Below, one piece after another: positions 5,565 to 31,742 of a stretch of 32,000 nucleotides of DNA. Source of the DNA: Candidatus Brocadia sp. (GTDB lineage: Bacteria; Planctomycetota; Brocadiia; Brocadiales; Brocadiaceae); contig CP091279.1 in NCBI GenBank assembly GCA_021650915.1, positions 1,950,001 through 1,982,000 of the forward strand. The letters run 5' to 3'. The notes beneath the pieces are model-generated. The model saw nothing but the letters and a program-made list of their open reading frames with translations, searched no databases and was not told the DNA's origin. The position numbers and the translations under genes were made by a program. Every line of letters starts with the position of its first letter. Positions within the stretch are counted from its first letter, which is position 1.

Positions 5565-6413
5565 ATGATTAAGCGAATACTTGTCCCTACTGATGGTTCA
5601 GATAATAGTCTTGCCGCCGCCGATTACGCGGTGGCCATTGCAGGGCTTTTTAAGGCCAGCATCAGGGGGTTGTTCGTTAAAGATGTCAAGGTATTAACCG
5701 GCCCTCTGATTCATGACATAGGGACAAGCATCGGTGGAATGGTACCCTATGGCACCTTTAACCAAACAATCAGAGAGATGCTGGAATCACAAGCAGATGC
5801 GGCGTTGGCTCTGGTAGAAGGGAAATGCGCTCAGGCAGGAGTGTCATTTGCCCAGGAGATACGCGAAGGAGTGGTAAGCCATGAAATCGTTAAATCTGCG
5901 GATGATTGCGACCTGATCTCTATGGGAAAGATGGGTATTCATGCCGAATGGCGCGATGTCTTTTTAGGTACGAATGTTGAATTTGTGGTACGGCAGACCC
6001 ATAAGCCGGTACTTATCAGCCCATCAGAATACAAACCGTTTACCAGGATGCTGATTGCCTACGATGGAAGCGCCTTTGCGGATAAGGCCCTGAGGAGCGG
6101 AGCTGAAATAGCGGTGGCTATGAAGTTGCCGATAACGGTGGTCTGTGTGGCAGACAAAAAAGACGCAGCCCTGGAACCGTTATCAAAGGCAAAGACCTTT
6201 CTTGAAGGATACCAGCTTACCGTTAATACTGTTGCAAAAGAAGGCGCCGATCATGCAAAAGGCATTCTGGAACTCTGTAACGATGAAGACGAAAAATTTG
6301 ATATCCTGGTCATGGGTGCCTACGGCCATTCAAGAATTCAGGAAATGATCCTTGGGAGTACCACGGTAAGAGTTATGAGATCCACGCACTGTCCCATCCT
6401 GCTTTATCGCTAA
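5565..6413 (+). CDS. tandem universal stress protein (two Usp domains)
   Basis: 282 aa with two Usp halves. They start RILVPTDGS and RMLIAYDGS, and the protein ends with the GAYGHSRIQEMILGSTTVRVMRSTHCPILL motif. Confidence 0.85.
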   Translation: MIKRILVPTDGSDNSLAAADYAVAIAGLFKASIRGLFVKDVKVLTGPLIHDIGTSIGGMVPYGTFNQTIREMLESQADAALALVEGKCAQAGVSFAQEIREGVVSHEIVKSADDCDLISMGKMGIHAEWRDVFLGTNVEFVVRQTHKPVLISPSEYKPFTRMLIAYDGSAFADKALRSGAEIAVAMKLPITVVCVADKKDAALEPLSKAKTFLEGYQLTVNTVAKEGADHAKGILELCNDEDEKFDILVMGAYGHSRIQEMILGSTTVRVMRSTHCPILLYR

Positions 6414-6624
6414 TGTTCGCTGATCATGAGCAACGATACATCAAAAAGTTAGACCACTATCCGCATGTGCCAAAAAATTTTCCATCGGGAGATATGCCAT
6501 CGAACATATTCATAGCATAGATTATTATCACCGGGAAGACGAGCATGGCCATAAACACGAATACCGGGCGCACGAGCGAAAGAGGCTGGTCCTTGCAAGC
6601 ATCATAACGGGAAGCGTCTTTGTT

Positions 6625-7485
6625 GTGGAGATTCTTGGGGGAATTATTACCAATAGTCTTGCCCTGATCAGCGATGCAGGTCACATGCTCACCCACCTGT
6701 TTGCATTACTCGTGAGCCTGTTTGCCCTCTATTTTGCAGCAAAACCCCCCACAGGGAAAAAAACCTATGGCTTCTATCGGTTGGAGATACTAGCGGCCTT
6801 ATTTAACGGCATAACCCTCTTCATGATTACCCTATGGATATTTTATGAAGCCTACCACCGTTTTATGCACCCGGAAACCATCTCGAGCGGCAAGATGTTT
6901 ATTGTGGCCTTAGTAGGCTTGGCTGCCAATGTAGCTTGCGCTTACATCCTCAAAGGAAAAGGCCATGGGCACGAACACAGCCTGAATGTCAAAGCCGCAT
7001 TTCTGCACATGTTGGGAGATACCCTTTCGTCAGTGGGTGTTATCATTGGCGCTATTCTTATCTATTATACGAACTGGTTTGTTGTTGATCCCATCATCAG
7101 CGTCATGCTCTGCATACTTATCCTGGTGTGGTCTTATAAATTAGTAATGGAATCTGTTGACGTTTTGTTGGAAGCAACGCCAAAGGAGATTGATATCTGC
7201 AAAGTTATTGCCAGTCTCAAACAGATTTCCGGCGTTGATAATGCCCATGATATTCACATCTGGACAATAACCTCTGGTATGTATTCCATGAGTGGCCACA
7301 TCGATACAAAGGACATGATGATCAGTGAGACGACCAAGCTTTCTAAAGAGATTAACCGTGTCCTGGGTGAAAAATTTAAGATTGGCCATACCGTAATTCA
7401 GTTCGGATGTGAATGCAAAGTCAATAATACACACGACGAACACCACCATCCGGGAACGGACCCGCACGAGCATCATGCACATTAG
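6625..7485 (+). CDS. cation diffusion facilitator (CzcD/ZitB-like Zn/Co/Cd exporter)
   Basis: Contains the SLALISDAGHMLTH and HMLGDTLSSVG metal-site motifs, the HDIHIWTITSG cytoplasmic domain, and a His-rich tail HDEHHHPGTDPHEHHAH. The family-like sequence (His-rich N-terminus plus the first TM) continues upstream in frame to ~6430 with no ATG, GTG or TTG, so the true start is uncertain. Confidence 0.8.
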   Translation: MEILGGIITNSLALISDAGHMLTHLFALLVSLFALYFAAKPPTGKKTYGFYRLEILAALFNGITLFMITLWIFYEAYHRFMHPETISSGKMFIVALVGLAANVACAYILKGKGHGHEHSLNVKAAFLHMLGDTLSSVGVIIGAILIYYTNWFVVDPIISVMLCILILVWSYKLVMESVDVLLEATPKEIDICKVIASLKQISGVDNAHDIHIWTITSGMYSMSGHIDTKDMMISETTKLSKEINRVLGEKFKIGHTVIQFGCECKVNNTHDEHHHPGTDPHEHHAH

Positions 7486-7871
7486 TGTCCGACAAAAACA
7501 ACTTCTATCATCGCCTTTTGTCCCGCAGCAGAAAAGACCATCTGTGTAGTGCCCGGAGAAACCCCACTTACGGTAAATGTGGCCTTGCCAGCCGGATTTG
7601 TGAGAGATTCAGGGGTAATCGTCGCAACCGTCGGGACAGTACTCACCGCCGTGACTTCTATACCAAAGAGTGGTCCCCCCTCTTTATCCAATACCTGAAT
7701 AAATACGTTATCCTCAGAACCAGAGTGGACGCTCAGTCTGTGGGGGCTCACCACGATACGCACCCCTTCCTCATACGGAAGATAGGAACGCGTTTGCGCA
7801 CACGAGCACAGGAAAATGATGCTCATCCAGATGAAAGAAAGACACAGACCCTTGTATTTCAAAAATTTCAT
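7482..7871 (-). CDS. lipoprotein with bacterial Ig-like domain
   Basis: 129 aa. It has a signal peptide with the lipobox-like IFLCSC, followed by a beta-rich Big-like segment (ATFTVSGVSPGTTQMVFSAAGQ). Confidence 0.6.
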   Translation of the reverse strand: MKFLKYKGLCLSFIWMSIIFLCSCAQTRSYLPYEEGVRIVVSPHRLSVHSGSEDNVFIQVLDKEGGPLFGIEVTAVSTVPTVATITPESLTNPAGKATFTVSGVSPGTTQMVFSAAGQKAMIEVVFVGH

Positions 7872-7924
7872 GAAGCTACTCCTCCCTTCAATAACGCCTG
7901 AACTTCCTCGTTTACGTTACGCAG

Positions 7925-8707
7925 TTAAAAACCCAGGTGGTCGATATTCCAATGGTACAAATCTTCTATCCGATCAATATCCGCTAATATCTTAAGGGTG
8001 CCGCAGGATAAATTCTTCTCCTGTAGCCTTTCTATTGTTTGGGCAAACACACGGCTGGTGCTCCAGTCTATGCCGGTAAACAACTCTGGAGTGTATCTGG
8101 CCATACCGATCAGGTAATAACCGCCATCTCTGCATGGTCCGATAACAACGTCCTTTTTTTGTAATACTTCAAAGGCGCGTTCAAGGAGTTCCGCATCTAT
8201 CTCCGGACAGTCTGTTCCTATGATTATGGCACGTGGGGATGAATACCCCTTGCCCTCATTTTCACAAGAATGATTTTTAGTGAGTCTTTTTGCCCAGTCT
8301 CGTCCTCTCTTCCCGAAAAGACTGAGAGGCGGAGCGGTATTGTGGTTGCGGCGATGTTTCTCCGGAATTTTTTTGCCATGCCTGCCTTGCAATGTTTGTT
8401 CAAAGGCATGGGACATTCTTGCACCCAGATCATCCCCTTCCTGAGAGATAAATTGTGTGTGGACTTCCGGAATGACGCTAAAGAAAGGTGTAAGCCAGGC
8501 CTTGATTTCATTTGCCTTATCTGCGGGGGTAAAAAAGATCCGCACCTCATAGGTCATTTGATTTTTCGGAAGGATATTCCTGATAACCCGTTCTGCAAGT
8601 GATTGGTAAATGAGGCATGCCCGCTCAGCGCCGATGTTCTTTGCCAAACGGGTTTTCACGTGCCCGGGACTTGGATATTTGAGGAAGACAATGAGTACCT
8701 TATCCAT
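7925..8707 (-). CDS. DUF2064/TIGR04282-like glycosyltransferase-fold protein
   Basis: 260 aa. The VLIVFLKYPSPGHVKTRLA N-terminus, IIIGTDCPE, GPCRDGGYYLIG and IDWSTSRVF motifs fit the family. It carries an extra ~50-aa basic segment in the middle. Confidence 0.7.
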   Translation of the reverse strand: MDKVLIVFLKYPSPGHVKTRLAKNIGAERACLIYQSLAERVIRNILPKNQMTYEVRIFFTPADKANEIKAWLTPFFSVIPEVHTQFISQEGDDLGARMSHAFEQTLQGRHGKKIPEKHRRNHNTAPPLSLFGKRGRDWAKRLTKNHSCENEGKGYSSPRAIIIGTDCPEIDAELLERAFEVLQKKDVVIGPCRDGGYYLIGMARYTPELFTGIDWSTSRVFAQTIERLQEKNLSCGTLKILADIDRIEDLYHWNIDHLGF

Positions 8708-19217: not shown

Positions 19218-21539
19218 ATGAATGATACCTTACTAAGACACCTGGGTTTAGACATTGAAAAAATTGCCGAAGAGATGCAGTTGCTTTCCGCTGATATTGA
19301 AGGAAACAAAGAGGCTTTGGTTAAGACGCTTGTCAGATATGACGAGGCAAAAAGGATCGCCAAAAATGCCGCGCTCTGGCAGTTTGGTTTGAGGCCGAAC
19401 CAAATACTATTCAGTGTGATAGACCAAACACGTCAGAATCAAACCATGAAAGAGCAGGCGGTGCGGGCGGTCGCGACACAGTATCTCGAGACATTTAAAC
19501 AGTCAAGAGAAGACGGCAGGGATAAATGCCTTACCCACAATGACCAGAGAGAACTCCTGGAATCAGCGCTGAAGATTCTCGTTAACTTTGAGAAAGAGAT
19601 GGACGGGAAAATTGAACCAGCAACATGCGCGCTCATTGCGAGAACATATCTGCTCAGAAGCGCTATTATGCTGCCTAAAGGTTTTACGGTGCCGGAAAAG
19701 AAAAAGGAGGCATTGCGAAAGGGTAGCGAATATATACGCACGATTGACGATTTAACGGAAGAAGCATTGCGCGTTCGCGGCAGTCTTCTTCTGGAACAGA
19801 GGCATATTGATATTCTGGAAAAAAATCGTGAATCCAACGGCGATAATCAAACTCTTATAAAAGAGCTGCGCGAAGCCCTTGAAAACGGCTGCGACAAATT
19901 TAATAACACAATTGAAGACGTGAGGATTGCCCTCTGTTACATCGAATTAACGGATGACAAGACAGATCTCTTGCAAAAGATAATAGACTCTCAACTCGAT
20001 TTCCCGGGGATCGAACTCTACCGGCTCAAGGCCTACTTTTTGAAAGGTGATTATGCCGCTATCAGTGATGAGGCTTTAAAAGAAGAGCTTAGCGGTATCC
20101 GTTTTAACCATCCGGTCTGGAATGAGGCAATGATCTTTATAAAACAGCTTAAGGATGCACAGGCAGATTGCTGGAGAAAATTAGCGTTAGCTGCTTATCA
20201 GGTATGCAGAACGCGAGAAAGTGAGACGTCCTCACTTCACCTTCGCTGGTACTGGTCTGGATACCGGCTGCTGTATGATCTTGCTTTTATTGCAGAAGAC
20301 GACCTCCACAGAAAGGCGGAAATTGCCGATTCGCTAAAAAGCCGGGTTTCCCTTCATGCAAAGGCGCTGGATGAAATTATTAAAAACGACAAGGAGAGAG
20401 AAGAATACTATAATGCCCATGCAGTTGCTTATGCTGGTGGGTACGTGAAAGGGGCGGGAAGAATTCATACGGGAAGGAAAGAAAAGGACTGCGACACAAA
20501 CAATGTCTTCAAAGCACTTCCAAAGGATGTTGCAATTGTTGCCTTTTATCTGAATTACTGTGAAAAGAACAAGGACTCACGGGGAAGGGGCTACGCCCTG
20601 ATTGCGGAAAACGGCACATGGAATATAAAGGAATTTCCCTTTGACAGCCTTTACAAGGCATATTTGACGTGGCAGACAAATTATGCACGGCACAAGGAGT
20701 CTGCGTCACCGTCTCTGGTCGAATTGTGTGAAGAGATAGGCAGGGCAATGCCCTTTCTTTTTGAAATAACGAAGAAAAGAATTGTCTTTGTGCCACATGA
20801 TTTTTTGCATCGATTGCCGCTGCATGGGGCAATAAAAAGAGAATGGCCGAAAGTCTTATTGGAGGAATACTCTTGCTTGTACTTGCCGGCCTGGTCATTG
20901 TTACACGCCGATACAACAAAATCCTCACAGACGGCCAGGAAAAGGATGCTCATAGAATGTTTTCATGAATATGATTATCATGAATTACAGACAAAGATAA
21001 ATGCACAGATAAAAGAGAGTAAGGGTGTTGTATGGGAAAAGCGAGAGAAGGCAAAGCCAAAAGACCTTTTGCAGATTCCTGAAGCGCCTGAAATCCTCAT
21101 GATATTATCGCATGGAAGGGCCGATATGACAAACCCCTATTATGCAAGGCTTAAGCTGGAAGGTGGAGATGTATCTGCTTTGGAAATCATGAAAGCCAAA
21201 ACCGGAACCATGAGTATCAAGGGCAGCAACGTAATCATGGGTTGCTGTGAAACTGATCTGTTGCCAGTATTATCAACACCCATTGATGAACATGTGTCGC
21301 CAGCGACAGCATTATACACCAGGGGGGCAAATTTTGTAGTTGGAACCATGTGGGAAATAAACCCCATAGATATAGAAAGGCATTTCATTGAACTATTAAC
21401 GAAAAATGATAATAGTATGTTGGAAGGTGTTGGAAATTGGCAAAGAGAAGGGTTGTCAGATGATAAATGGAAGAAGCACAAAGAATCGAGATTTTTCTAT
21501 GCTATTATTGGATTCAGAGTATTAGGTATCTTTACATGA
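19218..21539 (+). CDS. csx29: TPR-CHAT caspase-like protease (Csx29-like, type III-E accessory)
   Basis: 773 aa with a helical TPR-like N-terminal ~520 aa. The C-terminal CHAT domain has the motifs VFVPHDFLHRLPLHGA, LYLPAWSLL, ILMILSHGRAD (His codon 21111-21113) and NVIMGCCETD (Cys codons 21243-21248). It sits next to a Cas7-11-like gene. Confidence 0.85.
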   Translation: MNDTLLRHLGLDIEKIAEEMQLLSADIEGNKEALVKTLVRYDEAKRIAKNAALWQFGLRPNQILFSVIDQTRQNQTMKEQAVRAVATQYLETFKQSREDGRDKCLTHNDQRELLESALKILVNFEKEMDGKIEPATCALIARTYLLRSAIMLPKGFTVPEKKKEALRKGSEYIRTIDDLTEEALRVRGSLLLEQRHIDILEKNRESNGDNQTLIKELREALENGCDKFNNTIEDVRIALCYIELTDDKTDLLQKIIDSQLDFPGIELYRLKAYFLKGDYAAISDEALKEELSGIRFNHPVWNEAMIFIKQLKDAQADCWRKLALAAYQVCRTRESETSSLHLRWYWSGYRLLYDLAFIAEDDLHRKAEIADSLKSRVSLHAKALDEIIKNDKEREEYYNAHAVAYAGGYVKGAGRIHTGRKEKDCDTNNVFKALPKDVAIVAFYLNYCEKNKDSRGRGYALIAENGTWNIKEFPFDSLYKAYLTWQTNYARHKESASPSLVELCEEIGRAMPFLFEITKKRIVFVPHDFLHRLPLHGAIKREWPKVLLEEYSCLYLPAWSLLHADTTKSSQTARKRMLIECFHEYDYHELQTKINAQIKESKGVVWEKREKAKPKDLLQIPEAPEILMILSHGRADMTNPYYARLKLEGGDVSALEIMKAKTGTMSIKGSNVIMGCCETDLLPVLSTPIDEHVSPATALYTRGANFVVGTMWEINPIDIERHFIELLTKNDNSMLEGVGNWQREGLSDDKWKKHKESRFFYAIIGFRVLGIFT

Positions 21540-21619: not shown

Positions 21620-21650
21620 TCCCCTCCCAGGAGGGGACTTCTTTCGTCCC
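21620..21650 (+). terminator. GC-rich hairpin downstream of csx29 (possible terminator or REP-like element)
   Basis: TCCCCTCC (21620-21627) pairs with GGAGGGGA (21630-21637) and is followed by the pyrimidine-rich CTTCTTTCGTCCCTTCTT. The loop is very short and the U-tract imperfect. Confidence 0.3.
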
Positions 21651-21786: not shown

Positions 21787-22362
21787 ATGGACACAAACTA
21801 TTTTGATATGGTGGGACGCATTTATTCTGAAAATCATGAAAAGCTTATTAACTATGCACGCAAACATTATCCAATATTGAAACAAGAAGAAATAGAAGAC
21901 GTTGTCCACGATGTCTCTATCGAGATAATAAAAATGATACAGGCGTTATCTAAAACGGGAAATAGTATTGATAAAAAACTCGTCATAGGTTCTTTTTATA
22001 AACGGGTAAGATGCAGGTGTATCGATAGAGGTAGAAAAAAACAGGAAGAGTCAAAAGAAGAAGGTGTGCTTGATAATAAAATGTTTAAAAAGACTAACTC
22101 AGGGATTCCTTCGGAGCAGAAATGGTTCCATCCGGAAGATGCGCCAGATAATATCAATAAAGAAAAGTTAAATATAGCAATGAGTAAAATGGAGCAAGAG
22201 TGCTTAAAAACAATAAAATTATTTTATCTGAGCGAAGCTTCTTTATCTCATCGGGAAATAGCGAATGAATTACAAATTTCGGAAGAAAACTCAAGGAAGA
22301 GGTTGTCACGATGTATGAAGACGCTTAAGAAGTATTTTGATAAAGAAATAAATAAAATTTAA
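21787..22362 (+). CDS. rpoE: ECF/RpoE-like sigma-70 family factor (type III-E associated)
   Basis: 191 aa. It has a region-2-like segment (EEIEDVVHDVSIEIIKM) and a region-4 HTH (LSHREIANELQISEENSRKRLSRCMKTLKKYF), joined by an unusually long charged linker. Confidence 0.75.
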   Translation: MDTNYFDMVGRIYSENHEKLINYARKHYPILKQEEIEDVVHDVSIEIIKMIQALSKTGNSIDKKLVIGSFYKRVRCRCIDRGRKKQEESKEEGVLDNKMFKKTNSGIPSEQKWFHPEDAPDNINKEKLNIAMSKMEQECLKTIKLFYLSEASLSHREIANELQISEENSRKRLSRCMKTLKKYFDKEINKI

Positions 22363-22374
22363 AGAAGATATCAT

Positions 22375-23244
22375 ATGTGTGAAAGATCGGAACAGTATCA
22401 GGAGATGATGTTTGCATATATCGAAGGCATGCTGGAACCAGAAGAGAAGAAAATCTTTGAGCTTCATTTACAAGGTTGCAACAGTTGCAGGGAAGAACTT
22501 CAAAAGACTAAAAAACTAGTTGACATGCTTAAGGAAATACGTTTTAGACCCAATATGGTAACGGAAGATTGCAAAAATTATGACGTCGTGGGATACGCTT
22601 TTGACGAGCTGACACCAGAGGAAAGAGAAACCACCGCAATGCACATCGCAAAATGTGATCATTGTCTATTTGAGGTAATCGATCTGAAAGCCATAAAGAA
22701 AAATGATGTCGATGTTGATAATTCACAGGCGCAAACACCTGATGCGATAAAAGCAAATCTGTATGGCAATTGGATTAACCATAATATTATTGAATTCATA
22801 AGCGACAGCGTAGACTTGAAATTACCTCTTGCGGCAGGGCCTGCCGGGTTCAAAAAAACCCGGAAGGTTGGCAACAGATACATGATCAGCATTTCTCCAA
22901 AGAATGGAGAGATATCCTTGATGAAAGAAGATGCCTGTCATAGCGTCTTAAAACCAGTAAGAGACATCATTAATGGCCACTATTTTTATTATAAAATTTT
23001 TGGATTAGTAAAAGATTTAAAACAATGTGAATTGCTTTCGGGCAAAGAAAGATTCTTGCCAATTACAATAAAATTACCAACAAGAGACCTTTCTGCTTTG
23101 TACATATTTATTTCACAAAGAGAGGATGTTATACAACAAATTACCTTAGATTGGATGCTAAACGTCGCAAAAGGTACCCTTCAGCAACCGATAAATGAAG
23201 TTATTTATATCTATGCAAAAATTTGTTGGGAAGTGATGAAATAA
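22375..23244 (+). CDS. soluble anti-sigma-like protein with two tandem zf-HC2 (H-x3-C-x2-C) motifs, in the Csx30 position
   Basis: 289 aa. Motif 1 is AYIEGMLEPEEKKIFELHLQGCNSCREEL (H codon 22465, C 22477, C 22486). Motif 2 is FDELTPEERETTAMHIAKCDHCLFEV (H 22642, C 22654, C 22663). No TM segment is present. The start is 12 nt after the rpoE stop, and the stop is 2 nt before the cas7-11 ATG. Confidence 0.65.
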   Translation: MCERSEQYQEMMFAYIEGMLEPEEKKIFELHLQGCNSCREELQKTKKLVDMLKEIRFRPNMVTEDCKNYDVVGYAFDELTPEERETTAMHIAKCDHCLFEVIDLKAIKKNDVDVDNSQAQTPDAIKANLYGNWINHNIIEFISDSVDLKLPLAAGPAGFKKTRKVGNRYMISISPKNGEISLMKEDACHSVLKPVRDIINGHYFYYKIFGLVKDLKQCELLSGKERFLPITIKLPTRDLSALYIFISQREDVIQQITLDWMLNVAKGTLQQPINEVIYIYAKICWEVMK

Positions 23245-23246
23245 TA

Positions 23247-26200
23247 ATGTCTAAAACAGATGATAAAATAGATATCAAACTCACGTTTCTCGAACCATAC
23301 CGCATGGTAAATTGGTTAGAAAATGGTTTGAGAATGACCGATCCAAGATACCTGCGAGGTCTCTCTTTTGCCCGGTGGCATCGGAATAAAAATGGCAAGG
23401 CGGGAAGGCCGTATATTACGGGTACGCTTTTGCGGTCGGCAGTCATTCGGGCGGCTGAGGAGTTGTTGTCACTCAATTTGGGTAAGTGGGGTAAACAACT
23501 GTGTTGCCCGGGGCAGTTTGAAACAGAAAGGGAAATGAGGAAAAACAAGACTTTTCTCAGGCGAAGGCCCACCCCTGCCTGGTCTGCCGAAACAAAAAAA
23601 GAAATCTGCACTACCCATGGGAGCGCATGCGCATTCTGTCTCCTCCTGGGAAGAAGATTGCATGGAGGAAAAGAGGATGTCAATGAGGATGCCCCTGGAA
23701 GCTGTCGTAAACCCGTGGGTTTCGGCAATCTCAGCCTTCCATTTCAGCCCACAAAACGACAAATACAGGATGTCTGCAAAGAGCGCGTTTTAAACAGGGT
23801 TGACTTTCGTACCGGCAAAGCGCAGGACTATTTCAGGGTTTTTGAGATTGATCACGAAGATTGGGGTGTTTACACCGGCGAGATAACCATAACAGAGCCA
23901 CGCGTACAAGAGATGCTTGAAGCGTCTCTTAAATTTGTTGATACCTTATGTGGCGCCCTGTGCAGGATTGAGATTGTCGGGAGCGCCGATGAAACGAAAA
24001 GAACTACATCATCAAAAGAAGGGTGTCCTGCCTCCACTACCACCAGAGATTGCTCGTCTTCAGAAAACGATGATACCAGTCCGGAGGATCCTGTACGTGA
24101 GGATTTGAAAAAAATAGCTCATGTCATAGCGAATGCCTTTCAAAATAGCGGTAACAGGGAAAAGGTACACGCCCTTGCTGACGCAATAAGGGCCATGCGG
24201 TTAGAAGAGAGCTCTATTATCAATACCTTGCCTAAAGGGAAGTCAGAAAAAACAACAGAGCAGATTGAGGTAAATAAGCATTACTTGTGGGACGAAATAC
24301 CGGTTAATGACACGTCAGTAAGGCATATATTAATAGAACAATGGAGGCGGTGGCAGTCAAAGAAGGATGATCCCGAATGGTGGAAATTTTGTGATTTTTT
24401 GGGAGAGTGCCTTTACAAGGAATACAAGAAGTTAACGTCAGGCATTCAATCAAGGGCGCGGGTAATGGGTGAGACGGAATATTACGGCGCGCTGGGTATG
24501 CCCGACAAGGTAATCCCGCTTCTTAAAAGCGACAAAACGAAGGAATGGATTCTTGTCGGAAGCCTGAAGGCAGAGACCCCGTTCTTTTTTGGGTTAGAGA
24601 CGGAGCAAACAGAAGAGGTTGAACATACCAGCCTGCGGTTGGTAATGGACAAAAAGGGCCGGTTTCGCATTCCCCGCTCCGTTCTGAGAGGGGCATTGCG
24701 GCGTGATATGCGTATTGCATTTGACAGCGGTTGCGACGTCAAACTTGGCAGTCCTCTCCCCTGTGATTGTTCGGTGTGTCAGGTTATGAGAAGTATTACA
24801 ATAAAGGACTCCCGGAGCGAAGCGGGCAAGCTGCCCCAGATTCGGCACCGGATCAGGCTCAACCCCTTTAGCGGTACGGTTGATGAAGGAGCCCTCTTCG
24901 ATATTGAAGTAGCGCCTGAAGGAGTTATATTCCCCTTTGTGATGCGCTACCGGGGAGAGGAATTTCCGCCCGCTCTGTTGAGTGTTATCAGATACTGGCA
25001 GGATGGTAAGGCGTGGCTGGGGGGCGAAGGCGCTACCGGGAAGGGGCGTTTTGCCCTCGCCAAAGACCTCAAAATGTATGAGTGGAAGCTCGAAGATAAA
25101 TCTTTGCATGCATATATTGATACGTATGGCCACAGAGGAAATGAACATGCAATAGGAACCGGGCAGGGCATCGATGGTTTCCGGTCGGGTTCCCTGTCTG
25201 ATTTATTGTCTGACATATCAAAAGAAAGTTTCCGCGATCCCCTTGCATCTTACCACAACTATCTTGACAAGCGATGGATTAAGGTTGGTTATCAAATAAC
25301 CATAGGTGCGCCGTTGCTTTCTGCGGATCCCATCGGCGCCTTGCTTGACCCAAACAACGTGGACGCCATCGTATTTGAAAAGATGAAGCTGGATGGCGAT
25401 CAGGTGAAATATCTTCCGGCGATAAAGGGAGAAACGATTCGGGGTATTGTCAGGACTGCCCTGGGGAAAAGAAATAACCTTCTAGCGAAGAATGATCATG
25501 ATGACTGCACTTGCTCCCTGTGCGCCATCTTTGGAAATGAAAACGAAACAGGCAAAATCCGCTTTGAGGATCTGGAGGTATATGATAAAGACATTGCGAA
25601 AAAAATCGATCACGTCGCGATTGACCGGTTTACCGGCGGCGCAAGGGATCAGATGAAATTTGACACCCTGCCGCTTATCGGCAGCCCTGAACGTCCCCTC
25701 AGACTGAAAGGCCTCTTTTGGATGCGAAGGGATGTGTCGCCGGATGAGAAGGCCAGGATTTTGCTGGCATTTCTGGAAATTCGGGAAGGTCTCTATCCCA
25801 TTGGCGGAAAAACAGGGTCGGGGTATGGTTGGGTATCAGACCTGGAATTTGATGGCGATGCACCGGAAGCGTTCAAAGAGATGAACTCGAAAAGGGGCAA
25901 ACAAGCATCTTTCAAAGAAAAGATTTCCTTCCGGTATCCCTCCGGAGCGCCGAAGCATATCCAAAATCTCAAAGCGACGTCTTTCTATTATCCGCACTAC
26001 TTTCTTGAGCCAGGGAGCAAGGTGATAAGAGAACAAAAGATGATTGGGCATGAGCAGTATTATGAGTCGTATCCATCCGGCGCTTCTGGGGAAAAGCTTT
26101 TGTCTGGCAGGATAATCTGTAGCATGACCACCCATACCCCTCTTATTGTACCCGATACCGGAGTAATAAAAGATCCTGAAAATAAACACGCAACGTATGA

Positions 26201-28148
26201 TTTTTTTCAGATGAACAATGCGATAATGATCCCTGGTTCAGAGATACGCGGCATGATAAGCGCCGTGTATGAAGCAATGACAAATTCCTGTTTTCGCATC
26301 TTCCACGAGAAGCAATATCTGACGAGAAGAATCTCTCCCGAAGATAAAGAATTGAGAGAATTCATCCCGGGGATAGTCAGGATAATAAACGGAGACGTGT
26401 ATATTGAAAAGGCAGAAAGGGAGTACCGCCTGCCTCTCTATGATGATGTGCATATCATTACGAATTATGAAGAGCTGGAATATGAAAAATATATTAAGAA
26501 AAACCCTGGCCGGGAGCAAAAGATAAAGAATGCCCATCGCTTCAATAAAAACATAGCGCGTATTGCAGAATCCAACAGAAACTATTTATGCTCTCTGGAT
26601 CGCGCCGTTCGGCGTGAAATCTTATCGGGCAGGAAAAAAGTGAATTTCCGGTTGGTGAAGGTAAACGATAATAAAAATCCGGATAAAGAAGCTGTTGAGT
26701 TATGCAAGACCGGGCCATTAGAGGGCCTTGTGAAATTCAGCGGTTTGAACGCAGTAAACATATCAAACCTGCGTCCCGGAACAGCAGAGGAGGGATTTGA
26801 TGCCAAATGGGATATGTGGTCGTTAAATATTATTCTGAATCGTATGGATGTGCGAAACAGCCAAAAGAAGGAATATCCAAGGCCAGCGTTACATTTTAAT
26901 CACGATGGCAAGGAGTACACTATTCCTAAACGATGTGAAAGGGTCTTTGTGAGGGCAGAAGCAGGGAAAAGGGCTGAGACGGAGGGTTCTTATAAAGTGC
27001 CCCGTAAGGTGCAGGAACAGTACCAAAATATCCTGCGTGATTACGAGTCTAACATTGGCCATATCGATAATACGTTCAGAACGTTGATTGAAAACTGTGG
27101 CCTGAACAATGGGAGCCTGGTATATTTTAAACCTGATAACAGTCGTAAGGAAGTAGTGGCAATAACCCCGGTAAAAATATCCCGGAAAACCGACCGCCTG
27201 CCCCAGGGAGACAGATTTCCACACACCTCTTCAGACCTCCGGCCATGCGTAAGGGATTGCCTGGATACCGAGGGCGATATTCGCATGCTTGAGAATTCAC
27301 CTTTCAAAAGACTCTTCCATATACATCCCGAAGGTCTGTGTCCTGCATGTCAATTGTTTGGCACAACGAACTACCGGGGCAGGGTTCGCTTCGGTTTTGC
27401 CAGTTTGAGTGATGGCCCAAAATGGTTCAGGAAAGACGAGGGTAACGAAACGTGTCATATAACCCTGCCCTTGCTGGAAAGACCGCGACCCACCTGGTCA
27501 ATGCCGGATGATACCAGCACGATTCCGGGGAGAAAGTTTTATGTGCATCATATGGGCTATGAAACCGTGAAGAAAAATCAGCGGACTCTTGTAAAAACGG
27601 AGAATAACCGCACCGTAAAGGCATTAGACAAAGAGAATGAATTTACCTTTGAAGTTTTTTTCGAAAATCTGAGAGAGTGGGAATTGGGGCTTCTCTTACA
27701 TTGTCTGGAACTTGAACCGGAGATGGGACATAAGCTTGGTATGGGTAAACCGCTCGGATTTGGAAGTGTGAAGATACGGATAGACAAATTACAGAAGTGT
27801 GTCGTAAACGTAAAAGACGGTTGCGTTTTGTGGGAACCGGAAGAAGATAAGATTCAGCATTATATTGCCAAAGGCCTGGGAAAATTAACAACGTGGTTTG
27901 GGAAAGAGTGGGATCGTCTCGAACATATCCAGGGGCTGCGCTCACTGCAGAGACTTCTCCCCCTGAACGAAAATCTCACCGTAAAATATCCTGCTCTCAA
28001 TAACGAAAGCGATGGCGCTGAATCAGGCTACACCTATGAAGAACTTTCCAAAACAAGAGAATCAGAAGGGAAAGCGAAGAAAATTCAGGGGAGAATACGC
28101 GACCTCAAAACCCCCTGGAAAGAGATAGCTCAAAAGGTGAAGCATTGA
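23247..28148 (+). CDS. cas7-11: Cas7-11 / gRAMP-like single-protein type III-E effector (four fused Cas7/RAMP modules plus a Cas11-like region)
   Basis: 1633 aa from the ATG at 23247; the ORF is open from a TTG at 23223. There are four RAMP glycine/arginine motifs: ITGTLLRS (from nt 23415), RIPRSVLRG (24666), IKGETIRG (25422) and IPGSEIRG (26229). Each is paired with a Cys cluster: CC...C..C (23502-23637), C...CxC..C (24732-24777), CxC..C...FG (25506-) and C...C...C..CQLFG (-27348). A terminal G-rich loop GMGKPLGFGSVKI starts at nt 27738. The gene lies directly upstream of a CRISPR array whose repeat ends in the III-E-type ATGTCACGGTAC. Confidence 0.9.
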   Translation: MSKTDDKIDIKLTFLEPYRMVNWLENGLRMTDPRYLRGLSFARWHRNKNGKAGRPYITGTLLRSAVIRAAEELLSLNLGKWGKQLCCPGQFETEREMRKNKTFLRRRPTPAWSAETKKEICTTHGSACAFCLLLGRRLHGGKEDVNEDAPGSCRKPVGFGNLSLPFQPTKRQIQDVCKERVLNRVDFRTGKAQDYFRVFEIDHEDWGVYTGEITITEPRVQEMLEASLKFVDTLCGALCRIEIVGSADETKRTTSSKEGCPASTTTRDCSSSENDDTSPEDPVREDLKKIAHVIANAFQNSGNREKVHALADAIRAMRLEESSIINTLPKGKSEKTTEQIEVNKHYLWDEIPVNDTSVRHILIEQWRRWQSKKDDPEWWKFCDFLGECLYKEYKKLTSGIQSRARVMGETEYYGALGMPDKVIPLLKSDKTKEWILVGSLKAETPFFFGLETEQTEEVEHTSLRLVMDKKGRFRIPRSVLRGALRRDMRIAFDSGCDVKLGSPLPCDCSVCQVMRSITIKDSRSEAGKLPQIRHRIRLNPFSGTVDEGALFDIEVAPEGVIFPFVMRYRGEEFPPALLSVIRYWQDGKAWLGGEGATGKGRFALAKDLKMYEWKLEDKSLHAYIDTYGHRGNEHAIGTGQGIDGFRSGSLSDLLSDISKESFRDPLASYHNYLDKRWIKVGYQITIGAPLLSADPIGALLDPNNVDAIVFEKMKLDGDQVKYLPAIKGETIRGIVRTALGKRNNLLAKNDHDDCTCSLCAIFGNENETGKIRFEDLEVYDKDIAKKIDHVAIDRFTGGARDQMKFDTLPLIGSPERPLRLKGLFWMRRDVSPDEKARILLAFLEIREGLYPIGGKTGSGYGWVSDLEFDGDAPEAFKEMNSKRGKQASFKEKISFRYPSGAPKHIQNLKATSFYYPHYFLEPGSKVIREQKMIGHEQYYESYPSGASGEKLLSGRIICSMTTHTPLIVPDTGVIKDPENKHATYDFFQMNNAIMIPGSEIRGMISAVYEAMTNSCFRIFHEKQYLTRRISPEDKELREFIPGIVRIINGDVYIEKAEREYRLPLYDDVHIITNYEELEYEKYIKKNPGREQKIKNAHRFNKNIARIAESNRNYLCSLDRAVRREILSGRKKVNFRLVKVNDNKNPDKEAVELCKTGPLEGLVKFSGLNAVNISNLRPGTAEEGFDAKWDMWSLNIILNRMDVRNSQKKEYPRPALHFNHDGKEYTIPKRCERVFVRAEAGKRAETEGSYKVPRKVQEQYQNILRDYESNIGHIDNTFRTLIENCGLNNGSLVYFKPDNSRKEVVAITPVKISRKTDRLPQGDRFPHTSSDLRPCVRDCLDTEGDIRMLENSPFKRLFHIHPEGLCPACQLFGTTNYRGRVRFGFASLSDGPKWFRKDEGNETCHITLPLLERPRPTWSMPDDTSTIPGRKFYVHHMGYETVKKNQRTLVKTENNRTVKALDKENEFTFEVFFENLREWELGLLLHCLELEPEMGHKLGMGKPLGFGSVKIRIDKLQKCVVNVKDGCVLWEPEEDKIQHYIAKGLGKLTTWFGKEWDRLEHIQGLRSLQRLLPLNENLTVKYPALNNESDGAESGYTYEELSKTRESEGKAKKIQGRIRDLKTPWKEIAQKVKH

Positions 28149-28405
28149 TAGATGATGGCTTTTACAGGGCAGGGAAGATCCCATGAGGGTATTTTCAAAA
28201 GGGAAAAGAAACGACAAAATTATCTGTAACCAGGTATTGGCAAAGTGGTTATCTATAATTTCGTCAAAAACCATCGTTTTCCCCTTTGGTATCAATAACT
28301 TACATCGGTTTTTCCGATTTCAGACCATGAATCGCCTATGGGAAATGAAGGGTGTATGGAAATGCACATTTAACTCATTTGATTCAGATAGGTTATACGG
28401 GAGCG
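28149..28405 (+). promoter_or_regulatory. CRISPR leader
   Basis: A 257-bp AT-rich non-coding stretch between the cas7-11 stop and the first repeat. It contains a perfect TATAAT at 28254-28259 with only a weak -35. Degenerate repeats lie at the opposite end of the array, which supports leader polarity. Confidence 0.5.
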
Positions 28406-29701
28406 GTTGGCAAGGACGTCCTACCTTTATATGTCACGGTACTTTTTTATTAGACTAGCTGATAGATACCTGTTCGGATGTTGGCAAGGACGTCCTACCT
28501 TTATATGTCACGGTACCCATATTCTCTCGGCCGTGTCGTAGCCTACGACAAAGGTTGGCAAGGACGTCCTACCTTTATATGTCACGGTACCTTACTTGTG
28601 CCCTCTTCCTTCAACAACTCATCAGCCAGTTGGCAAGGACGTCCTACCTTTATATGTCACGGTACCTATTATTAAACTAGGCGCGTGGAGCCCGCTAATC
28701 GTTGGCAAGGACGTCCTACCTTTATATGTCACGGTACATTTTACGTCGATCCACGGCACATTGTCGTCCACTGTTGGCAAGGACGTCCTACCTTTATATG
28801 TCACGGTACGAATACAACTACCATCGGTCGGACTCCGACCTTTCGTTGGCAAGGACGTCCTACCTTTATATGTCACGGTACATCTGCTATCCTAATTGCT
28901 AAAAGGATCGGGCAATCCCCGGGTTGGCAAGGACGTCCTACCTTTATATGTCACGGTACTTTTTCCCTTCCAATTCATCTTTCCTCCTCCTCCCCGCGTT
29001 GGCAAGGACGTCCTACCTTTATATGTCACGGTACATCCAAATGATGTTCCATGTTCCACCTCCCCACAGACAGTTGGCAAGGACGTCCTACCTTTATATG
29101 TCACGGTACACACAGACCGCCTACAACGTGTCCGGCGATCTTTGTGGTTGGCAAGGACGTCCTACCTTTATATGTCACGGTACAGATCCCTCCGCCTCTT
29201 TTCACACAGACCGCCTACAGTTGGCAAGGACGTCCTACCTTTATATGTCACGGTACGCTACCACAACGCGCCCTTCGCTTATAGGTTTTTTGGTTGGCAA
29301 GGACGTCCTACCTTTATATGTCACGGTACCCATCCTCTCTGGCAGCGTCCGATAACCCCACCATATGTTGGCAAGGACGTCCTACCTTTATATGTCACGG
29401 TACAGCGCATCCCTCAAGTTGCCATCCCTGTCCCACATCTGTTGGCAAGGACGTCCTACCTTTATATGTCACGGTACTTGATGCCCGATGCCACAATGGC
29501 GTGGGCTCCGGCATCTGTTGGCAAGGACGTCCTACCTTTATATGTCACGGTACTCGCCCTTTCGCAGTACTGAAAATTGATTCCGTCAAAAGTTGGCAAG
29601 GACGTCCTACCTTTATATGTCACGGTACTTAAGGTGAAGCATTCTCCTTTCTCTCTAACTCTTCAATGGTTGGCAAGGACGTCCTACCTTTATATGTCAC
29701 G
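28406..29701 (+). CRISPR. CRISPR array, main part: 17 intact 37-bp repeats plus the first 33 nt of repeat 18
   Basis: The repeat is GTTGGCAAGGACGTCCTACCTTTATATGTCACGGTAC. Copies start at 28406, 28480, 28554, 28629, 28701, 28773, 28845, 28923, 28998, 29073, 29147, 29220, 29293, 29367, 29441, 29517, 29592 and 29669. There are 17 unique spacers of 35-41 bp. Confidence 0.97.
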
Positions 29702-31742
29702 CAGGGTAACGTCAAAGTCATGCTAGGCAAAAAAGGGGGAGTGTCAGGGCAAGGGAAAGAAGGGGTTTGAAGAGGGAAAAACGAGCAAAGACACGAAAAG
29801 ATGACAAAAAAAGGCATAAAAGACAAGGGAATCCCCATGTGCCTCGAAGGGCATGGGAAATAAGGGGGGAAGGGGAAGAAAGAGACGTTATAAGCGAAGG
29901 AGTTTCAGGGCAAGGTGAGGTTGGTAGGTTAAATTTCTAAGAGTTTGTGCGATAGCGGTTCTTCCCAGTGAGCGAAAGATGCTGATGATGCAATTTTTGA
30001 GGGAGGCCATAACCCTGGGTGCATGGTTTGTTCGAATCGGGGAGCGGTCTTCATCAAAGGTGACATCACGAACGTAATGGAGGCTGTTTTCAATACTCCA
30101 ATGTCCCCGGTTCAAGCGGAGTATGCGGGCAGGGTCTGCCTTTTGTTGCGTAAGGCTGGTAATGCCATAGACCGTTTCTTCGGTTGTTTTTTGGGATTTG
30201 AGGTAGGTAAATTTTCTGTGGATACAAAAGACCTGTCCAACCAAGGGGAATGCAAGGTAATGGTTTAAATCGGCGCTGGTCCAGACCTGGCGGATTTCAA
30301 TGCGTCCGTGATGTTTGTCGATGGTTTTGTGCTGAGGGGGGAAAAGAGACCAGGCGGAGGTCTTCGATATGTTGTCTGAGAGTGGGTTGGTTGTCTTTTA
30401 CGGTAAAGAGGTAATCGGCTTTCTTGTCTTCAACGAGATACCGCGCCGTCTCTTTTTGGGTATGCAGGGCATCGAGAGTGACCACCTTGTCCTTGATGTC
30501 TAAGGGGTCAAGGAGGGTTTTCAGCGTTGGGATTTCGTTGGTTTTCTGGTCAACGGGACATTGGGCGATAACGACGCCTTTTTGCTGGAGAAAGGCAGAG
30601 AGGAGATGGATTTTCTGCCCGTTTTCCTGGTATGCGCCCTTGAGGGTCTTCCCGTCAATGGCAATGGCGGTATCTTCTCCGGCAAGGGACTGAAGCCAGC
30701 CGTAGAGGGCCGTATCTACCGCTTCGGCATCAACGTCTTGCAGGAACCTGCGGATGGTAGGTTCGCTGGGAGGTTCATAGATGCCGGTCTTTGGGTTCAG
30801 ACGACAGCCGAGACGTTTGAGCATATTTTGACTGCATGATTTTGCCCACTCAGCGATAGCGGCAAAGCTTGTGGCAGAACACAGCAGGGCGCAAAGAGAA
30901 AGGGTCATGACGGAGAGCTTTCTGTGTCGTTTGCCGCGTGATAGACGGGGATCAGGAATCTGGGATAATCGTTCTTTCAGTGATTCAGCATCTTTCAGAG
31001 AAAGGCGCATCGGTTTTACCTCCTTTGGGGTGTTTCGGGTTTCGAGATACGGTTCAGAGAGTTTTCTTTTCCCATCGGGAAGAACAGGACGAACAAAGAC
31101 CATCTTGGGTTGGTTGTGGGAATAATACCGGTGAGCGCATTTTGCAAACCCGCGGGTATATCCCAGAAACTCCCAGCCCTGGGCCTTGTAACAGGTGCCC
31201 TTGAAAGAGCGCGGATCGACAAAGGTCTCTGCAAGATAGATCGGATGGTTATAGATGGTTTGCCAGTCCCGGGATAATCGTTTGAGATTCCGGGCGAGGA
31301 CATAAGAGGCAAGGTTGGGTATACGGACATGAGGGAAGATCAGGAAACGACTGTTATTGGCAACAAAAGACAACCGCCGGTACTGAAGAAAGCAAGGCCA
31401 TCCTATCCAGCGGTCTCGTACCTTGCATTTGAGCGCCGCTGCTGACCATCCGATCAAGGCAAGCCATTGTCCCTGGTGTATCGCCAGATACCGGATGCTT
31501 TCCCCGATCAGAGAGTGAAGCCCAGGATAATGGTATTGGCGCATGAGTTCGTCCCATCGGGTTCGTTCTTCCCGACGGATGGGTCTTACTTCAATGCCGT
31601 GAAGACCGCCCGATGGTACTACGCTTTTTCGTGTCTCTTCATGGTTCATGAATCTATTATACAAGAACCATTTTGAAAAAGTCAGTTTATTCCTTTTCTT
31701 TTTTACGTGTCAGTACTTGCGCTTATACTTGACGTAGCCCTG
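29702..31742 (-). mobile_element. ISAs1-family-like insertion sequence inserted in CRISPR repeat 18
   Basis: 2041 bp. The imperfect terminal inverted repeats CAGGGTAACGTCAA (29702-29715) and TTGACGTAGCCCTG (31729-31742) match at 12 of 14 positions. A 10-bp direct duplication ATATGTCACG lies at 29692-29701 and 31743-31752. Removing the IS and one duplication copy restores an intact 37-bp repeat. Confidence 0.85.
29888..31664 (-). pseudogene. ISAs1-type DDE transposase with an N-terminal DUF4338-like domain, frameshifted
   Basis: The 455-aa ORF (31664-30297) carries the ISAs1 hallmark LSQIPDPRLSRGKRHRKLSVMTLSLCALLCSATSFAAIAEW. The second frame (open from ~30350, ending at 29888) continues with HKTIDKHHGRIEIR...GHWSIENSLHYVRDVTFDEDRS. 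The frames switch near the G6/A4 homopolymers at 30336-30345. Confidence 0.8.

Follow-up and report, generated by a model that had tools for sequence, protein, structure and literature searches.

A Csx30- and Csx31-less type III-E CRISPR locus of Candidatus Brocadia, with a tandem zf-HC2 protein in the position of Csx30

Genes of the locus

In a stretch of 32,000 nucleotides from the genome of Candidatus Brocadia sp. (contig CP091279.1, positions 1,950,001 to 1,982,000 of the forward strand; hereafter 'the window', in whose own numbering positions are given), we analysed a type III-E CRISPR locus that begins with csx29, a gene encoding a TPR-CHAT protease. The locus is compact, and its order from 5′ to 3′ is csx29, a gene encoding an ECF-type sigma factor, a gene encoding a protein with tandem zf-HC2 domains (the 'ZAS protein'), the gene encoding the gRAMP/Cas7-11 effector, a leader and a CRISPR array. 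An initial annotation of this DNA, made from the sequence alone, had already placed csx29 first in its locus, and it is indeed the 5′-most gene, as it also is in Jettenia, Kuenenia and Desulfobacteraceae loci. The canonical type III-E gene order is csx29, sigma, csx31, csx30 and gRAMP. The Brocadia locus is a variant of this type that lacks Csx30 and Csx31 and has the tandem-ZAS protein in the place of the substrate.

The csx29 gene (19218..21539, + strand) is an open reading frame (ORF) that starts with ATG and encodes 773 residues, with a helical N-terminal domain or TPR part (residues 1 to ~417) and a CHAT region (residues ~435-773). It adjoins a type III-E effector, gRAMP being encoded 1.7 kb downstream, together with an array of 18 repeats. 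The encoded sequence is identical to GenBank entries KKO18796.1 and UJS22396.1, a 'CHAT domain protein' of Candidatus Brocadia fulgida (Bf), and the proteins of the flanking housekeeping genes are Brocadia proteins as well.

The sigma gene (21787..22362, +) encodes 191 residues and is recognized as ECF-type by the TIGR02937 sigma70-ECF model (59 bits; cut-off 42.9), while its Pfam scores for Sigma70_r2 (16.2 bits versus 24) and Sigma70_r4 (22.7 versus 24.1 bits) are below the gathering thresholds. It is not the canonical III-E sigma factor (see below). It ends 12 nucleotides upstream of the gene for the ZAS protein (22375..23244, +; 289 residues), an anti-sigma-like protein that matches Pfam zf-HC2 (PF13490) with 52.8 bits versus 22.2 and also matches the anti-sigma factors RsiW, RsrA and DdvA among NCBIfam models and PDB sequences. 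Two tandem zinc-type sites of the form C...H-x3-C-x2-C (C2/H31/C35/C38 and C66/H90/C94/C97) make an internal duplication visible, and the rest of the protein comprises a low-confidence linker (residues ~104-202) and a C-terminal domain (residues ~165-289). No transmembrane segment is predicted in it, and we take it to be soluble. By its zinc motif, its zf-HC2 match and its adjacent ECF sigma gene, the protein is classed, at the level of sequence, among ZAS-domain proteins.

The sigma and ZAS ORFs (21787-23247) are in one frame, and the ZAS stop codon ends 2 nucleotides before the probable ATG of gRAMP at 23247. This tight packing of sigma, ZAS and gRAMP genes suggests co-translation. The 248-nucleotide gap after csx29 holds a putative terminator-like hairpin (21620..21637, +), predicted by a consensus scan alone, which is G+C-rich, is followed by a T-rich tail and lies 80 nucleotides past the csx29 stop. 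Given this hairpin, csx29 may be transcribed apart from the sigma, ZAS and gRAMP genes.

Canonical accessory proteins were sought with the NCBIfam models for Csx30 (NF041234), Csx31 (NF041235) and the III-E sigma factor (NF041236). On these models the accessory proteins of Jettenia caeni score 155 (III-E sigma), 453 (Csx31) and 647 bits (Csx30), and the same three genes are present in 11 other loci from our genome and metagenome scans, including Desulfobacteraceae loci. Among the ORFs of the 32-kb window, neither the Csx30 nor the Csx31 model has a match, and tblastn of the Jettenia Csx30, Csx31 and sigma proteins against the window found nothing (best E 0.21). The Brocadia sigma factor reaches 24 bits on the III-E sigma model, whose cut-off is 100. 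In the literature searched, which did not extend to the supplementary figures of subscription papers, we found neither the Brocadia nor the Kuenenia locus described, and no zf-HC2 protein reported for a type III-E locus.

A single-sequence search with the ZAS protein against 5.8 billion proteins returned only the protein itself. Locus comparison combined with a profile search uncovered six relatives: a 514-residue protein of Kuenenia hertensis (locus L001), P0184 (L026), P0185 (L034), P0186 (L035/L036) and a 279-residue protein (L037) that is 30% identical to the Brocadia protein over 258 residues (E 1e-29). All six are encoded in type III-E loci, directly 5′ of gRAMP, which is the position of csx30 and is also that of the Brocadia ZAS gene, and none of these loci has a Csx30 or Csx31 match. 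Two forms can be distinguished. The long forms carry an extra N-terminal domain of ~210 residues, and their genes are preceded by genes encoding a divergent ECF-like sigma factor (275-410 residues) and an uncharacterised protein of 213-253 residues; the short forms (Brocadia and L037) are preceded by a sigma-like gene only. The family has a linker of small residues (in Bf LKLPLAAGPAGF, residues ~145-160), followed by a conserved C-terminal domain of ~125 residues. In the long-form loci, the gene of 220-253 codons was considered as a possible short csx31, a reading that we rejected (hhalign E 0.1). The ZAS-type loci as a single Csx29 clade were likewise not supported, the neighbour-joining tree uniting only Bf with L037 and L035 with L026.

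Further genes were seen in these loci. Just 5′ of the csx29 gene of L037, a 397-residue protein (123-1316, + strand of that sequence) has about seven Cys-rich repeats of the form C..C...HRDW..PP..(C)KEC. After gRAMP in L035 (14725-15359, +), a small ORF and a PIN/VapC-like gene form a putative toxin-antitoxin pair.

The effector gene (23247..28148, +) encodes ~1633 residues of gRAMP/Cas7-11, identified by NF041225 (2214 bits; cut-off 700) and Pfam RAMPs matches; its ORF opens with TTG at 23223, and ATG at 23247 is the probable start. The 257 nucleotides from the gRAMP stop to the first repeat (28149..28405, +) are the presumed leader, the degenerate repeat being at the far end of the array. 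A 91-residue ORF (28183-28458, +) that lies in this leader and runs into repeat 1 has no family match and is probably not a gene. Repeat detection delimits the array (28406..29705, +), which has 18 repeats of 37 nucleotides (GTTGGCAAGGACGTCCTACCTTTATATGTCACGGTAC) and 17 spacers of 35-41 nucleotides. All repeats but the last, which is degenerate at its 3′ end, are identical (17/18). The 3′ end of the repeat, ATGTCACGGTAC, is the same in Brocadia, Jettenia and the published repeat of Scalindua brodae (bioRxiv 10.1101/2022.08.22.504715); for this comparison arrays were sought in the sequences of L001, L009 (Jettenia) and L035, where only the first Jettenia repeat was within range. A blastn search of the 17 spacers against 50,697 phage genome records gave no match.

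Directly past the array, on the - strand (30297-31664), is a gene for a 455-residue protein with a DruA-like N-terminal region (PF14236) and DDE_Tnp_1_assoc and DDE_Tnp_1 transposase domains. The genes upstream of csx29 are housekeeping genes, encoding VWA and TPR proteins, MtnA, PurE, a nucleosidase and others. The window (1-32000) was found to contain neither cas1 nor cas2 nor a reverse transcriptase gene, so the III-E locus is without an adjacent adaptation module. In L009 (8169-9749, -) and in L001 (Kuenenia; 6234-8149, -), a divergent pair consisting of a radical-SAM gene and a small gene (179-185 codons) lies just 5′ of csx29. The small gene has a weak GreA-like match in Jettenia. No such pair is present in the Brocadia window.

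The Csx29 protease and its catalytic dyad

The NCBIfam model of Csx29, the type III-E TPR-CHAT protein (NF041237), matches residues 111-771 of the Brocadia protein with 729 bits (cut-off 300; E 7e-219), and the Pfam CHAT model (PF12770) matches residues 520-715 above its threshold (29.2 bits versus a gathering score of 24). In phmmer searches against PDB sequences, the best match is the TPR-CHAT protein of Candidatus Scalindua brodae (Sb; 7x8a_D, E 6e-110), and Csx29 of Desulfonema ishimotonii (Di; 7y9x_B, E 1e-91) and a third TPR-CHAT protein (7zoq_A, E 2e-72) are also found. On the Pfam, NCBIfam and PDB-chain scores a chance match is excluded, and the TPR-CHAT assignment of the initial annotation is borne out.

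An AlphaFold2 model built from 93 family sequences (mean predicted local distance difference test, pLDDT, 88.2; predicted template-modelling score 0.88) is all-helical over the first 417 residues, as in solved Csx29 and as had been predicted for the N-terminus, and is followed by an alpha/beta region. A CHAT region had been assigned initially to the C-terminal ~250 residues; the domain is present, but it is somewhat longer than this, with beta-strands from about residue 438. Foldseek matches the model to the Craspase structures 8d9g, 7y83 and 8eey (E 1e-38; target-normalised template-modelling (TM) score 0.87-0.89; root-mean-square deviation 3.3-3.5 Å), and the next fold after the Craspase chains is separase (E 4e-9). 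The model is nearer to these target-RNA-bound, active states than to the apo and self-RNA states (5.1-5.8 Å), which for the geometry of the dyad is no more than an indirect hint.

The initial annotation gave exact coordinates for the ORF and exact numbering for the proposed catalytic residues. The motif ILMILSHGRAD begins at residue 626 and includes H632 (CAT, 21111..21113, +), and the motif NVIMGCCETD begins at residue 671 and includes C676 (TGC, 21243..21245, +) and C677 (TGT, 21246..21248, +). We compared these residues with a family sample: 1.84 billion proteins were scanned in full with HMMER, which gave 356 matches at E <= 0.001, and representatives of these were aligned with MAFFT. In this alignment H632 and C677 share columns with Di H615 and C658; the first column is His in 140 of 142 representatives and the second Cys in all 141. 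(A Csx29-like representative, P0056, has Ile in the His column and may be inactive.) The HMMER alignment to Sb TPR-CHAT likewise sets 'ilsHGra' opposite 'ilcHGea', pairing H632 with H585, and 'vimgCCetd' opposite 'vilgACetd', whose Cys is residue 627. Both reference dyads have been validated by mutation: H615A/C658A in Di Csx29 abolishes Csx30 cleavage (PMC10028731), and so does C627A or C627S in Sb TPR-CHAT (PMC9729208).

The His-Cys spacing, which had been described as comparable to that of characterised Csx29 proteins, is 45 residues to C677 (44 to C676), versus 42 in Sb (H585/C627) and 43 in Di (H615/C658), and a 3-residue insertion in the intervening loop accounts for the difference from Sb. 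Furthermore, Y478, E659, D661, E672, S675 and R744, by which the active site of Di is positioned, are conserved as Brocadia Y489, E678, D680, E691, S694 and R767. The dyad columns thus coincide in the alignment and the model superposes on solved Craspase, in agreement with the initial claim that the dyad is intact. The protein is, with high probability on these comparisons, a genuine Csx29 protease with an intact H632/C677 dyad. Judged as a protease alone, it is unremarkable within a family that has been well studied.

The doubled cysteine had initially left the nucleophile undecided between C676 and C677, and homology settles this in favour of C677. Since C677 stands in the column of the validated Sb and Di cysteines and is invariant, whereas 128 of 141 representatives have Ala at position 676 (family G-A-C-E) and two have Cys there, we are confident that C677 is the nucleophile and that C676 is a non-catalytic replacement of the usual Ala. 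The presence of two neighbouring thiols, and of the same doublet in the sister protein P0045, might speak for C676 or for either cysteine interchangeably. However, the E678-T-D680 motif, the counterpart of which positions the catalytic Cys in Di, is also in register with C677, and we regard a nucleophilic C676 as extremely unlikely.

Cys at position 676 occurs only in Brocadia Csx29 and P0045, which is encoded in L037. Both proteins also have Ser at position 631, before the catalytic His (LSHG versus CHG), where 116 of 142 representatives have Cys, and the two are sisters in the neighbour-joining tree. We considered that C676 compensates for the lost Cys at 631 and rejected this idea: 18 other proteins with S631 have no C676, and the two sisters represent a single event. 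As they amount to one evolutionary event, the pairing of S631 with C676 is not interpretable. The pair (21108-21110 and 21243-21245; C631 and A676 in the family) coincides with the only two loci that have the short ZAS protein of 279-289 residues.

The candidate substrate of Csx29

The initial annotation considered the protease probably functional and did not notice that Csx30 and Csx31 are missing, which raises the question of what Csx29 cuts. The protease of canonical loci cleaves the anti-sigma-like protein Csx30 and thereby releases the sigma factor RpoE/CASP-sigma. If Brocadia Csx29 works as its Scalindua and Desulfonema homologues do, its helical N-terminal or TPR part would dock on gRAMP/Cas7-11 loaded with CRISPR RNA (crRNA). 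A non-self target RNA, once bound, would rearrange the CHAT pocket, shortening the His-Cys distance from ~7-8 Å to ~3-5 Å and bringing H632 and C677 within attack range, and the activated protease would make one specific cut in a partner protein recognized mainly through its C-terminal domain. For Brocadia, formation of the complex with gRAMP-crRNA and its triggering by RNA are thus expected by analogy with the characterised homologues.

We propose that this partner may be the ZAS protein, which would hold the ECF sigma factor through its zinc-finger domains. Csx29 would cut it probably in the small-residue linker at residues ~145-160, releasing a C-terminal fragment of ~15 kDa, similar in size to the Csx30-C fragments of characterised systems (16-18 kDa). 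The cut would free the ECF sigma factor for a transcriptional response. Because the ZAS protein stands at the csx30 position, has relatives that are all 5′ of gRAMP without Csx30 or Csx31, is soluble and carries an anti-sigma zinc motif beside an ECF sigma gene, we lean slightly towards its being the substrate of Csx29, a proposal drawn from gene neighbourhood alone. A broader hypothesis is more tentative, and we hold it to be possible without calling it probable: a subset of type III-E systems (B. fulgida and its sister L037, and with the long form Kuenenia hertensis, L026, L034 and L035) may have replaced Csx30 and Csx31, such that an RNA-guided protease cleaves a true zinc-binding ZAS anti-sigma factor. 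In that case the short form of 279-289 residues would represent a minimal Craspase substrate of natural origin, and the S631/C676 pair beside the dyad would belong to the adaptation of the pocket to it.

Several observations weigh against this account of the protease and its substrate. The window is 32 kb of a 4-Mb genome, in which csx30 could lie elsewhere, and the Csx29 tree does not unite the ZAS-type loci in one clade. Brocadia Csx29 does not retain R394/D395, the allosteric residues of Di, though these vary throughout the family. We also asked whether the ZAS protein is a diverged Csx30. BLASTP of the 289-residue protein against Csx30 of Candidatus Jettenia caeni (Jc) was negative, and a PDB profile search with the ZAS protein found no Csx30. 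In hhalign the ZAS and Csx30 C-termini are co-linear with E 0.002-0.004 (controls 0.1-0.28) but a probability of only 8-13%. With a pLDDT of 44.5, the AlphaFold2 model of the ZAS protein is unusable; Foldseek found nothing significant with it, the retained Di-Csx30-C fragment (8eey_E) ranking 46th with E 0.14, and given the quality of the model this outcome cannot be interpreted. These results do not establish that the C-terminal domain of the ZAS protein is homologous to Csx30-C.

The lack of significant homology would also fit an active protease whose substrate is Csx30 or another protein encoded elsewhere, with the sigma/ZAS pair merely regulating expression of the locus. Our analysis covered 32 kb of genome, and regulation of CRISPR loci by sigma/anti-sigma pairs is known, as with DdvS/DdvA on a CBASS-CRISPR island of Myxococcus (PMC11506125). 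However, the placement of all six ZAS relatives directly 5′ of gRAMP, where no Csx30 or Csx31 match is found, is what a functional replacement would be expected to show. Pairs of Csx29 and Csx30 moreover co-evolve, and every characterised system encodes both together (PMC11106740); we consider a substrate encoded elsewhere rather unlikely. Alternatively, the system could be degenerating, Csx30 and Csx31 having been lost and Csx29 kept as a non-proteolytic modulator of the gRAMP RNase. The csx30, csx31, cas1, cas2 and reverse transcriptase genes were not found in the window, a DDE transposase gene lies beside the array, and TPR-CHAT is reported to modulate the nuclease activity of Cas7-11 (PMC9935389, PMC11089037). 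Nevertheless, the dyad and the six supporting active-site residues are intact, all ORFs are of full length and the repeats are almost uniform. Since at least five other divergent loci share the Csx30-less layout and have an intact Csx29, selection rather than decay is indicated, and degeneration seems very unlikely.

The added value of the analysis lies in the context of the locus, with a sigma/ZAS pair in place of Csx30 and Csx31, and not in the protease. The latter adds little, being one more intact Csx29 that is already in GenBank and recognized by the NCBI Csx29 model, although the assignment of C677 as nucleophile removes an ambiguity for mutagenesis. Craspase-substrate pairs are mutually specific and are under development as orthogonal RNA sensors (PMC11106740). 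If the ZAS protein is the substrate, its short and unrelated 289-residue chain would provide a new orthogonal Craspase pair. The protease arm of type III-E systems would then be rewirable to a conventional ECF sigma/ZAS switch, which would support sigma-factor release as its conserved output. RNA-guided proteolysis would in this way be joined directly to a classical switch that may also sense redox state.

Comparison with known systems

The best PDB match of Brocadia Csx29 is the TPR-CHAT protein of the Scalindua brodae Craspase (7x8a, 7y83, 8d9g), with 34-35% identity and the TM scores given above. The CHAT motifs HG, C-E-T-D and DEH are common to both proteins, H585/C627 are in register with H632/C677, and both hosts are anammox planctomycetes whose repeats have the same 3′ end. 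However, Brocadia Csx29 has ~70 extra N-terminal residues besides the 3-residue insertion between His and Cys, and it has SHG and GCCE where Sb has CHG and GACE. The Sb protease cleaves Csx30 (L|D), whereas there is no Csx30 in the Brocadia window.

Csx29 of the Desulfonema ishimotonii CASP system (7y9x, 8eex, 8eey) aligns over its full length including the N-terminus (residues 20-771 to 12-748), with H615/C658 and all six positioning residues conserved in Brocadia. Identity is ~27-33%, and the AR2 tip, R394/D395, differs. Furthermore, the substrate of Di Csx29 is Csx30 (M|K) in complex with CASP-sigma, and Csx31 and adaptation genes are encoded in the Di locus as well (PMC10028731). Jc TPR-CHAT is 41-44% identical to the Brocadia protein, among the highest values found (the representative P0040 reaches 46%), and its locus also has csx29 first and gRAMP last. 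The genes between them differ: Jettenia has the canonical III-E sigma, Csx31 and Csx30, which is cleaved at A|S, whereas Brocadia has another ECF sigma factor and the ZAS protein.

Outside type III-E, the closest parallels are in the regulated proteolysis of anti-sigma factors (RseA with DegS-RseP, RsiW, and the ZAS family, e.g. RsrA), as the Brocadia protein has the ZAS H-x3-C-x2-C motif and is encoded beside an ECF sigma factor. In DdvA, a TPR-CHAT anti-sigma factor, a CHAT protease is coupled to a ZAS domain as well (PMC11506125). In Brocadia, however, protease and ZAS domains belong to two distinct cytoplasmic proteins, the ZAS protein has a duplicated ZAS domain and no transmembrane helix, and activation would be guided by RNA.

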